Below, in pieces: positions 18,333 to 21,269 of a DNA stretch of 64,000 bases. Source of the stretch: an uncultured bacterium (GTDB taxonomy: Bacteria; Patescibacteriota; Minisyncoccia; UBA6257; 2-01-FULL-56-20); assembly GCA_963707865.1 (NCBI GenBank), contig OY970175.1:80748-144747 (forward strand), written 5' to 3'. The notes under the pieces were generated by a model that saw only the letters and a list, made by a program, of their open reading frames with translations, had not been told where the DNA came from and searched no databases. Positions within the stretch are counted from its first letter, which is position 1. The number at the start of each line of letters is the position of its first letter. The translations under genes and the position numbers were made by a program.

Positions 18333-21269
18333 ATGTCCAAATACGAACCGAAGGATATTGAGGCGAAATGGCAGAAGAAATGGCTTGAGGAAGGGACTTA
18401 TGAACCGGATCTAGATAACGCGAAAAAACCGTTCTACAACTTGATGATGTTCCCGTACCCCTCGGCGGAGGGGTTGCACGTGGGAAATATGTACGCGTTC
18501 ACGGGTGCGGACATCTACGGGCGGATGAAACGCATGCAGGGCAACGACGTGTTTGAGCCGATCGGCCTGGACGGCTTCGGCATTCACTCGGAAAATTATG
18601 CGTTGAAGATCGGCGCGCATCCGATGGACCGGGCAAAGGTTTCGGAGGAGCGTTTTTATAAGCAGCTCGCCGCCATCGGCAACGGTTTTGCGTGGAATGA
18701 GCGATTGGAGACCTATGACCCCGAATACTACCGCTGGACGCAGTGGATCTTCGTCCAAATGTGGAAGCACGGCCTTGCGTACCGAAGGAAGCAGTCGGTC
18801 AATTGGTGCCCGAAGGACCAGACGGTGCTTGCCGACGAACAGGTGATCGCCGGTGTGTGCGAGCGCTGTGGGACGCAGGTCATCCAAAGGGAGTTGGAAC
18901 AGTGGTTTTTCAAAATTACCGAGTATGCCGACCGCCTGCTTAAGAATCTGGAAATATTGGATTGGTCAGAAAAGGTGAAGATCGCGCAGAAGAACTGGAT
19001 AGGGAAGTCGGAAGGGACACTCATCAAATTTCCGATAGCCGATTCAAAATTGTCCATCGAAGTTTTCACAACGCGGCCGGACACACTCTTCGGCGCGACC
19101 TATATGGTGCTCGCGCCCGAGCATCCGCTTGTGAAAGAGCTCGAACCGCGCATTACAAATTTTGCGGAAGTAAAAAAGTATCAGAAGAGCGCGAAGGATA
19201 AGTCCGACGCCGAGCGTCTCACTGAAGGAAAAGAGAAAACCGGCGTGAAGTTGAAAGGCGTCAAAGCCATCAATCCTGCAAATAAAGAAGAAATATCAAT
19301 TTGGGTCGCCGACTATGTTTTGGCGAGCTATGGAACGGGCGCCATCATGGCCGTTCCCGCCCACGACGAGCGCGATTTTGCGTTTGCGAAAAAATTCAAC
19401 CTGTCTATTAAGCAGGTGATTGCTCCTTACTTTACCGTCAAAGAAGGCAAAGACGCCGTGAGAAGTGACAAGCCAACCGTAAACCGACGAACCATTTATG
19501 CATTAGTGCGAGATAAAAGTGGCGAGAAATTTTTGTGTCTTGATTGGGAACGATTCAACTGGCATTCCGGTATTATAGGAGGAATAGAGAACGACGAGAG
19601 TCCGATTGAAGCAGCGACACGCGAAATTAGAGAAGAAACTGGTTATCAAAGCATTCGATTCATTAAGGAAATCGGAGGAGAAATGCATAATAATTTCTTC
19701 GCGGCTCATAAGGATGAAAACCGCTACGCTGTCAGCCGTGGCTTGCTTTTCGAGATTGTAGATGACGAAGACAAAAAGGAAGTTGAAGCAGAACATTCAA
19801 AAAATCACAATCCGATTTGGATTTCTGCCGATAAAATGGGAGCTTGGCTAAATTTACCCGCGTTTCTCTATATGTGGCAGCTATTGTCTGCGGACAAAGA
19901 GTGTTTTGCTGAGGATGGTATTATCATCAACTCTGGAAAATTTGATAGTATGGAATCCGAGAAAGCAAAATGGGAGATCACGAAATTCGTGGGCGGCGAG
20001 CGGAAAACAACCTACCGCCTCCGCGACTGGCTCATCTCGCGCCAGCGCTACTGGGGGCCGCCGATCCCGATGGTGCACTGCGAAGCGTGCGCGCGTGCGA
20101 AAAAAGGTGAGCATGCGAACATGCCCGGATGGTACGCGGTGCCCGAGGAAAACCTGCCCGTGAAGCTTCCCTATGTAAAAGATTTCCGGCCGACAGGAAC
20201 CGGAACGTCGCCTCTTGCGGCAGTGAAGGAATTTTATGAAACCAAGTGCCCCGGGTGCGGCGGCCCCGCGCGGCGGGAAACGGACGTTTCGGACACATTC
20301 CTAGATTCGGCATGGTACTATCTCCGCTATCTTGATCCAGAGAATTCAAAGGGAGCGTTCAATCACAAGCGGCTTGAAAAATGGTTGCCAATAGAAAAAG
20401 AAACTGCCACGCGGCTCTATACGGGCGGCGCGGAACATTCGGTACTTCACCTGCTCTACGTGCGATTCGTGGCGATGGCACTTGCCGATTGGGGATTCGT
20501 CGTCTCGCCGGAGCCGTTCAAAAAATTTCGCGCACACGGGTTACTCATCAAAGAAGGCGCCAAAATGTCCAAATCCAAGGGCAACGTCGTCAATCCTGAC
20601 GAATATATCCAAAAGTTCGGTGCGGACACGCTGCGGATGTATCTCATGTTCCTTGCGCCGTTTGAGGACGGCGGCGATTTCCGCGACCGCGCGATCCTCG
20701 GCATCCTCCGTTTTTTGGAGCGCGTGTGGAAACTGGGCGAGGCGGTCGCCTCTGGAGGAAAAAAGGCGGACGGCGCCTCCGCGAGCGTAAAAAGAAAGGG
20801 AAGCAGAGCGGTGGCAATCGCAGTGAAAAAAGTATCCGAGGACATTGAGCGGCTGCACTACAACACCGCGGTGAGCGCGCTCATGGTGTGCCTCCGCGTA
20901 CTTGAGGAGAGACGAGAGGAGGGGTATGTCGCCCGCGGGGATTTTGAAACATTCCTGAAGCTGCTCGCGCCGTTCGCGCCGCACATCGCGGAGGAACTTT
21001 GGCGCAGCGCCCTCGGCGAGGTTGCCTCTGTCCATCACGCCGCATGGCCGACATATGATCCGTCGCTTATCACCGAGGAAACGATTACGCTCGTGATCCA
21101 GGTGAACGGCAAGGTGCGCGACGCGATTGCGGCGGACGCTGCAATCACCGAGGCGAGGGCGTTGGAGCTCGCACTCCAGAGCAAAAAGGTGCAAAATGTT
21201 CTGGATGGCCGGACACCTGTAAAGGTCATTTATGTAGATAAAAAACTGGTGAACATCGTATTTCCATAA
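18333..21269 (+). CDS. leuS: Leucyl-tRNA synthetase with inserted NUDIX domain
   Basis: P.YPSAEGLHVGN (HIGH), VPAHDERDFAFAKKF, RDWLISRQRYWGPPIP, KMSKSKGN. An insertion of about 160 aa (roughly aa 375-533, nt 19425-19900) carries the Nudix box GGIENDESPIEAATREIREETGY. Confidence 0.9.
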   Translation: MSKYEPKDIEAKWQKKWLEEGTYEPDLDNAKKPFYNLMMFPYPSAEGLHVGNMYAFTGADIYGRMKRMQGNDVFEPIGLDGFGIHSENYALKIGAHPMDRAKVSEERFYKQLAAIGNGFAWNERLETYDPEYYRWTQWIFVQMWKHGLAYRRKQSVNWCPKDQTVLADEQVIAGVCERCGTQVIQRELEQWFFKITEYADRLLKNLEILDWSEKVKIAQKNWIGKSEGTLIKFPIADSKLSIEVFTTRPDTLFGATYMVLAPEHPLVKELEPRITNFAEVKKYQKSAKDKSDAERLTEGKEKTGVKLKGVKAINPANKEEISIWVADYVLASYGTGAIMAVPAHDERDFAFAKKFNLSIKQVIAPYFTVKEGKDAVRSDKPTVNRRTIYALVRDKSGEKFLCLDWERFNWHSGIIGGIENDESPIEAATREIREETGYQSIRFIKEIGGEMHNNFFAAHKDENRYAVSRGLLFEIVDDEDKKEVEAEHSKNHNPIWISADKMGAWLNLPAFLYMWQLLSADKECFAEDGIIINSGKFDSMESEKAKWEITKFVGGERKTTYRLRDWLISRQRYWGPPIPMVHCEACARAKKGEHANMPGWYAVPEENLPVKLPYVKDFRPTGTGTSPLAAVKEFYETKCPGCGGPARRETDVSDTFLDSAWYYLRYLDPENSKGAFNHKRLEKWLPIEKETATRLYTGGAEHSVLHLLYVRFVAMALADWGFVVSPEPFKKFRAHGLLIKEGAKMSKSKGNVVNPDEYIQKFGADTLRMYLMFLAPFEDGGDFRDRAILGILRFLERVWKLGEAVASGGKKADGASASVKRKGSRAVAIAVKKVSEDIERLHYNTAVSALMVCLRVLEERREEGYVARGDFETFLKLLAPFAPHIAEELWRSALGEVASVHHAAWPTYDPSLITEETITLVIQVNGKVRDAIAADAAITEARALELALQSKKVQNVLDGRTPVKVIYVDKKLVNIVFP

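Follow-up and report, generated by a model that had tools for sequence, protein, structure and literature searches.

Few proofreading enzymes have been studied as thoroughly as leucyl-tRNA synthetase (LeuRS), which also serves as a drug target: its CP1 editing domain binds benzoxaboroles. Here we analyzed the leuS gene carried by a 64,000-nucleotide stretch (the window) from an uncultured bacterium of the Patescibacteriota (Minisyncoccia, UBA6257, 2-01-FULL-56-20; GenBank assembly GCA_963707865.1, contig OY970175.1, positions 80,748 to 144,747 of the forward strand). Its product shares domain order and fold with the LeuRS of Thermus thermophilus (1H3N, 2BTE) and Escherichia coli (4AQ7, 4ARC), with Foldseek TM scores of 0.72-0.83 and 30-38% identity, and it keeps their KMSKS loop, Thr-rich editing motif and HDxRD motif. 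It differs from both in its HIGH motif, which reads HVGN, and from the T. thermophilus enzyme in having 165 additional residues, predicted to form an independent enzyme fold, instead of loop 364-374 in CP1. These additional residues correspond to a Nudix hydrolase.

The only related precedent that we found is a Nudix domain fused to an NMN adenylyltransferase of the HIGH superfamily (PMC7824862). There too, Nudix is combined with an adenylate-forming enzyme that is Rossmann-like and has a HIGH motif, but the fusion is end to end and has a known metabolic logic (NAD/ADP-ribose), whereas the Nudix domain of the window is nested in an editing domain. No description of a LeuRS-Nudix protein, or of inserts in LeuRS of the Candidate Phyla Radiation (CPR), was found in the full-text literature, a coverage mostly outside subscription journals. 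LeuRS with interchangeable hydrolase cargo, widespread in Patescibacteria, has apparently remained undescribed.

A Nudix domain nested in the editing domain of LeuRS

The leuS gene is a single unbroken open reading frame (ORF) on the + strand, as are all its features given below; it starts at TTG 18303 or ATG 18333 and ends at 21269. From the ATG, the coding sequence (18333-21269) specifies 978 amino acids plus the stop codon, and a database protein of 978 residues that is 100% identical to the product (P0020), encoded on a contig of 898,885 bp, begins at this ATG. Pfam profiles for tRNA-synt_1 (PF00133), the editing domain (PF13603), Anticodon_1 (PF08264) and NUDIX (PF00293) all match the protein. 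The class I core with KMSKS, the CP1 domain and the anticodon domain identify it as a bacterial LeuRS, HVGN standing at the position of HIGH. The HVGN signature of the synthetic site (18477-18488) lies in the clade consensus GLHVGNMYAF; the replacement of the second His of HIGH by Asn is the consensus of this LeuRS clade, in insert-bearing and insert-less members alike. The KMSKS loop was read directly at 20562-20576. In the editing domain, the Thr-rich motif TTRPDT (residues 246-251; 19068-19085) and the Asp motif AHDERD (HDxRD; residues 343-348; 19359-19376) both align to T. thermophilus LeuRS. The synthetic (HVGN, KMSKS) and editing (TTRPDT, HDERD) motifs are therefore intact.

Within this frame lies a Nudix hydrolase module (residues 364-528, APYF to ECFAED; 19422-19916), preceded by FAKKFNLSIKQVI and followed by GIIINSGKF, which matches free-standing Nudix proteins of about 160 residues over their whole length. 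A first-pass annotation had proposed an in-frame NUDIX domain in LeuRS at 19425-19900. The domain is borne out by the single ORF and by the match of the excised segment to PF00293 (41.7 bits, E 1.4e-10; Pfam gathering threshold 21.1), and the proposed region was right, its limits being refined to those given above. In the whole LeuRS, PF00293 matches residues 384-502 with 39.1 bits. The Nudix box, GGIENDESPIEAATREIREETGY (residues 416-438; 19578-19646), agrees by direct reading with GX5EX7REUXEEXGU at all specified positions, with E431, E434 and E435 as predicted catalytic residues. The insert has the alpha/beta/alpha sandwich of the Nudix fold, in which the box forms the loop-helix-loop. A family-specific motif, AAHKDENR (K460, N463 and R464; 19701-19724), is the presumed substrate-binding element.

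The insertion site had been placed at the junction between CP1 and the catalytic core. This proved to be wrong when the protein was aligned to T. thermophilus LeuRS, which matches up to residue 363 (LPIKKVIE) before the insert and from residue 375 (EEPGIMVNSG) after it. Only residues 364-374 occupy the site in T. thermophilus, and about 5 residues, the loop NDEGK, do so in the closest orthologue (P0027). The PF13603 match (212.6 bits, residues 220-367) covers profile positions 1-144 of 185. The break in this profile at position 144, and the equivalence of the site with loop 364-374 of T. thermophilus, place the insertion in a loop within the CP1 editing domain. The N-terminal three quarters of CP1 (18990-19421) align to 1H3N residues 212-363, and its C-terminal part, together with the return to the catalytic core (GIIINSGKF to RLRDW; 19917-20030), to residues 375-444. 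The insert starts 16 residues past the HDxRD motif of the editing site, and the junction between CP1 and the core, RLRDW (residues 562-566), lies apart from it. In the predicted structure, short strands at residues 363-368 and 529-531 flank the module; it would therefore be a nested domain with adjacent termini. A search for direct or inverted repeats and mobile-element scars near 19422 and 19916 revealed nothing meaningful.

Base composition and origin of the insert

The insert had been described as AT-rich, with about 40% GC against about 60% in the remainder of leuS, and as acquired or replaced recently. The AT bias was confirmed, though in a milder form, with 43% GC in the insert and 54-55% elsewhere in the gene; the corresponding GC contents at third codon positions (GC3) are 0.40 and 0.67. 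GC3 is not uniform along leuS. A scan for a low-GC3 segment with two breakpoints gave 19374-19970 as the best segment, with a 2dLL of 51.9, whereas 200 shuffles gave no value above 20.1. This tract of foreign composition (GC3 0.40 versus 0.68) comprises the insert and about 16 conserved LeuRS codons on each side, and foreign composition through lateral acquisition or replacement remains the best reading of it. GC3 returns to 0.72 in the C-terminal part of CP1 (19917-20030). Over the ORFs of the 64 kb, just 5.5% of 165-codon windows have a GC3 of 0.40 or less, and these lie mostly within an Eco57I-like restriction-modification gene. Inserts at the same site in three other genomes are 0.01-0.08 below their own backbone in GC3, compared with 0.27 in the window. 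Both GC3 and identity seemed intermediate for CP1 as a whole, and the anomaly is confined to about 19374-19970. A replacement of the whole of CP1 was ruled out, an insert-less orthologue (L003) having a similar CP1 GC3 (0.63, versus 0.61 in the window). CP1 itself is thus native, as its lower GC3 is also found in the orthologue without insert.

We then compared the insert and the backbone of related LeuRS. The nearest backbones (P0027 and P0038, 75% identity) have no insert, and P0027 shares with the window a MetRS-TatD-LeuRS-(310 aa)-HtrA neighbourhood. A relative with 72% backbone identity (P0026) has an insert only 34% identical to that of the window, whereas the insert identity reaches 56-61% in the P0021 group (backbone 65-69%), 58% in P0142 (backbone 49%) and 53% in P0140 (backbone 56%). 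The P0143 insert is also 58% identical, with backbone segments at 36-56% outside a universally conserved stretch; the insert on contig L002 is 54% identical, and the backbone segments of these two are 36-58% identical to the window outside conserved residues 301-363. Over 67 LeuRS, insert and backbone identities were uncorrelated (Spearman rho -0.13). By these identities, the content of the insert is discordant with the LeuRS backbone. In a neighbor-joining tree of 230 domain copies, the window insert falls in a clade of 20 made exclusively of inserts from this site of LeuRS. Free-standing proteins enter only wider clades: a clade of 23 leaves includes one of them, a 143-residue representative, and a clade of 59 leaves includes 18. 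The low-GC3 tract spanning the conserved flanks, the exclusively LeuRS composition of the insert clade and the lack of an insert in the closest orthologues together suggest recombination from another leuS. We infer that the module was gained, or that an older module was replaced, by recombination with a leuS of lower GC content.

Interchangeable cargo in LeuRS of the Candidate Phyla Radiation

LeuRS were searched with the full-length protein. The counts given below refer to the best 120 matches, a list in which insert bearers are over-represented, as the insert raises their score; the backbones of these 120 are 63-75% identical to that of the window. Two insertion points were distinguished: site B, the CP1 loop that carries the insert in the window, and site A, at the start of CP1 between KSEGxxIxF and VFTTRPDT. 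At site B, 75 of the 120 LeuRS carry an insert of at least 120 residues, so that the presentation of the window LeuRS as a singular case was not borne out. At least 66 of these 75 inserts are Nudix domains of the family found in the window; the rest include a second Nudix type, and three have no Pfam match. An impression of rarity had come from a word-indexed search with the insert alone (19 matches) and was overturned by the full-length and exhaustive searches. The LeuRS-Nudix architecture recurs in dozens of independent assemblies (NCBI, ENA, JGI and Logan). Every match named by organism belongs to the Patescibacteria (Liptonbacteria, Sungbacteria, Niyogibacteria, Paceibacterota, Tyrphobacter, Minisyncoccia), and the same Nudix is present at site B in metagenome-assembled genomes of Magasanikiibacteriota (L002, JAPLWR010000054.1) and Saccharimonadales (P0200).

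The cargo was found to vary. Site A is occupied in 28 of the 120 LeuRS by about 175 additional residues, which correspond to a YdeN-like alpha/beta hydrolase whose GHSLGG elbow is intact (for example P0021 and P0078); in one protein (P0059) a Ham1/ITPase-like domain takes its place. A full Ham1 domain occupies a third site, upstream of the anticodon domain, in at least one LeuRS cluster (P0148). Three Nudix copies are present in each of P0140, P0141 and P0173, and P0041 has a Nudix of a different type (175 residues) at site B. These LeuRS resemble that of the window in their backbone and in their insertion points (FAKKFxLPIxQVI and G(I/L)xINSGKF), but the window LeuRS bears only the site-B Nudix, of subtype '1a'. 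CPR LeuRS is a host of swappable hydrolase modules at two or three permissive sites.

Further domains at site B have no match in Pfam or NCBIfam: one of 126-132 residues in P0044, P0072 and P0094, and one of 88-89 residues in P0089 and P0132. In addition, a leuS with the same Nudix insert lies at 6001-6845 of a low-coverage (0.83x) ENA contig (L001), where frameshifts split it into small ORFs; sequencing error is a more likely cause of these frameshifts than decay to a pseudogene.

The cargo has consequences for annotation. Some full-length LeuRS are publicly named after it: P0033 is an 'alpha/beta fold hydrolase', P0103 is also concerned, and P0289, from the cluster of P0148, is annotated as 'RdgB/HAM1 family non-canonical purine NTP pyrophosphatase'. 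Automatic names that hide LeuRS behind its cargo are a practical problem, since leuS could therefore seem to be missing from such genomes.

The Nudix family outside LeuRS

An exhaustive HMMER search with the insert in 1.84 billion representatives at 50% identity gave 319 matches at E <=1e-3. Among the best 150 of these, 102 show similarity to LeuRS and five more are LeuRS fragments according to Pfam, while the remaining ones are mostly stand-alone proteins of about 160 residues that align with the insert from end to end. Judged by these matches, the window module belongs to a distinct Nudix family that resides mostly inside LeuRS. Unlike the nested module, the free-standing members (P0002-P0016, P0159 and others) are encoded by genes of their own. 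We found no conserved gene neighbours for them, their neighbourhoods being unrelated to aminoacyl-tRNA synthetase (aaRS) genes, and we found no biochemical characterisation of any free-standing member. The closest solved structure is that of an Enterococcus faecalis MutT/nudix protein (2AZW), whose function is uncharacterised.

The same family was also detected in prolyl-tRNA synthetase (ProRS). In clusters P0172 and P0299-P0302, it is nested between the anticodon-binding and C-terminal domains and is 43% identical to the window insert. The closest insert-less relatives of these ProRS are named Nanoarchaeota or Woesearchaeota (DPANN). As with the window LeuRS, the host is an aaRS of an ultra-small lineage, but it is of class II. 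The Nudix box of four of the five ProRS deviates slightly from the consensus, with D replacing the first E and K replacing R (GGQDNLD...KEIIEETGY). A 716-residue archaeal-type ProRS (P0386) contains PF03483 (B3_4), a domain folded like the editing domain of the PheRS beta subunit; this suggests that DPANN aaRS also take up foreign modules.

Predicted activity of the module and alternative explanations

Twenty-three columns of the insert are at least 80% conserved in site-B copies, and conservation is similar in the 152 site-B, 11 site-A and 36 free-standing copies. The catalytic residues E431, E434 and E435 are 94-100% conserved in each of these groups, and the K460/N463/R464 motif is 91-100% conserved in inserted and free-standing copies alike. 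The conserved residues specific to the family are R385, W405, W410, K460, N463, R464 and W496. Because the same residues are equally conserved in both contexts, the module is predicted to be an active enzyme under purifying selection, with the substrate of its free-standing relatives. Its neighbours in structure and profile comparisons are 2AZW, the ApnA hydrolases Rv2985 and Ndx1, DIPP1, AvrM14 and Dcp2, of which AvrM14 and Dcp2 are decapping-type enzymes. When the insert alone was compared by sequence with the PDB, only marginal matches to the Nudix box emerged, whereas the family profile matched AvrM14 and 2AZW at E values of 1e-7 to 1e-6. Nudix enzymes cleave the pyrophosphate bond of NDP-X compounds, and aminoacyl-adenylates have no such bond. 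Hydrolysis of Leu-AMP, proposed in the first-pass annotation, would thus be chemically atypical and is unlikely; Ap4A, which had been proposed with it, or a related compound, is a plausible substrate.

We consider it probable, from the composition, phylogeny and conservation described above, that the window leuS acquired its module laterally from another leuS and that the module is an autonomous, tethered Nudix hydrolase working apart from editing. A leuS of lower GC content that already bore the module would have given rise to the present gene by homologous recombination. The module would be a Mg2+-dependent pyrophosphohydrolase with the same substrate as the free-standing proteins; our guess for this substrate is an NDP-X compound, such as a dinucleoside polyphosphate, or an RNA 5' end carrying a polyphosphate linkage. 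It would be tethered to the essential LeuRS and co-expressed with it, while remaining outside its editing chemistry. If so, the locus would represent a striking case of domain nesting and of lateral module exchange in an essential gene of reduced genomes. Several points weigh against this proposal. The trees are neighbor-joining or identity-based and carry no support values. No sampled insert exceeds about 60% identity, so that the donor is unsampled and 'recent' has only a relative meaning. None of the NCBIfam equivalogs (RppH, Ap4A hydrolase, NudE, MutT) reached its cutoff, the best match, to RppH (NF001938), scoring 27.2 bits for a cutoff of 116, and all matches spanned the Nudix box only. 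Finally, the recurrence of the family in ProRS and its enrichment in LeuRS hint at a coupling with aaRS chemistry.

Such a coupling is possible, though we regard it as doubtful. The Nudix domain would destroy a by-product or error product of the synthetic site, adding a step of proofreading or metabolite repair, with Ap4A/Np4N (formed from Leu-AMP and NTP) or misactivated adenylates as candidate substrates. The idea stays alive because nesting of one family in ProRS and its enrichment in LeuRS go beyond what a pure passenger would predict: about 70% of the representatives among the best 150 are LeuRS, and the nesting in the class II ProRS of DPANN archaea is independent. The distance of 16 residues from the editing Asp motif, the ApnA hydrolases among the structural neighbours and the hydrolytic nature of the other cargoes (Ham1, and the alpha/beta hydrolase with its intact elbow) point in the same direction. 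Against this, the free-standing copies keep identical conserved residues in neighbourhoods unrelated to aaRS genes, many close orthologues function without any insert, and adenylates lack the bond that Nudix enzymes cut; to our knowledge, LeuRS is not a major producer of Ap4A. A coupled cargo would mean a new mechanism of proofreading or alarmone control. In a broader form of the proposal, which we think unlikely, the aaRS of ultra-small episymbionts (LeuRS in CPR and, convergently, ProRS in DPANN) would be platforms for a so far unrecognised set of laterally exchangeable hydrolases (Nudix, Ham1, alpha/beta hydrolase) acting on synthetase products, these being Ap4A/Np4N, misactivated adenylates or mischarged esters. 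This would imply a new aaRS-coupled quality control or alarmone control.

Two other explanations fare worse than lateral acquisition of an autonomous hydrolase. The insert could be ancient and vertically inherited, its insert-less relatives having lost it and its low GC content reflecting relaxed codon constraint. Inserts are indeed very widespread in CPR LeuRS, those of other genomes also lie slightly below their backbone in GC3, and both the window and L003 show a GC3 in CP1 below that of the core. However, a GC3 deficit of 0.27 with sharp edges around the insert contrasts with the 0.01-0.08 seen elsewhere. Identity in the insert also shows no correlation with identity in the backbone; LeuRS whose backbones are 49-56% identical to that of the window have inserts more similar to its own than the 72% relative does. 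We therefore hold vertical inheritance to be very improbable. It is hardly credible that the insert lacks catalytic activity and serves only as a structural or regulatory spacer, or that it is an artefact of assembly or annotation: the Nudix box matches its consensus perfectly, with Glu residues that are 98-100% conserved over about 200 copies, the ORF is continuous, and the architecture is repeated in dozens of independent assemblies.

Other genes of the window

The two free-standing Nudix genes reported in the window, at 26601-27113 and 46077-46598, were both confirmed by Pfam. The first, which is AT-rich, had been put forward as the donor lineage of the insert. It is only 34% identical to the insert, over 64 residues at the Nudix box, and the second is more distant (38% over 29 residues, also at the box only); AAHKxxNR and W496 are absent from both, and both were rejected as donors. 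For the first gene, the box-only similarity, the missing AAHKxxNR motif and the exclusively LeuRS clade of the window insert all argue against this role. A CYTH (triphosphate tunnel metalloenzyme) gene at 26030-26548 lies directly upstream of it on the same strand. The GC3 of the CYTH gene is 0.42 and that of the Nudix gene 0.49, for about 0.65 in typical genes of the window, and the two may be a foreign pair handling nucleotide polyphosphates.

Upstream of leuS, the mechanically called ORFs for MetRS (15822-17294) and TatD (17144-18169) share about 150 nucleotides, and TatD orthologues have 288-301 residues compared with 341 in the mechanical ORF of the window. The true starts of TatD and leuS are probably downstream of the mechanical ORF starts.

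The lowest GC3 of the window (0.38 overall and as low as 0.28 locally) is that of the gene at 2628-4967, which encodes a 779-residue Eco57I/MmeI-like fused restriction-modification methylase and is probably a recently acquired defence gene. Two ORFs without Pfam match also have a low GC3 (24784-25485, 0.46; 30869-31678, 0.40). Lastly, 33709-36114 encodes an 801-residue protein with the domains of VirD4/TraG type IV secretion coupling proteins (TrwB_AAD_bind, T4SS-DNA_transf and TraG-D_C).

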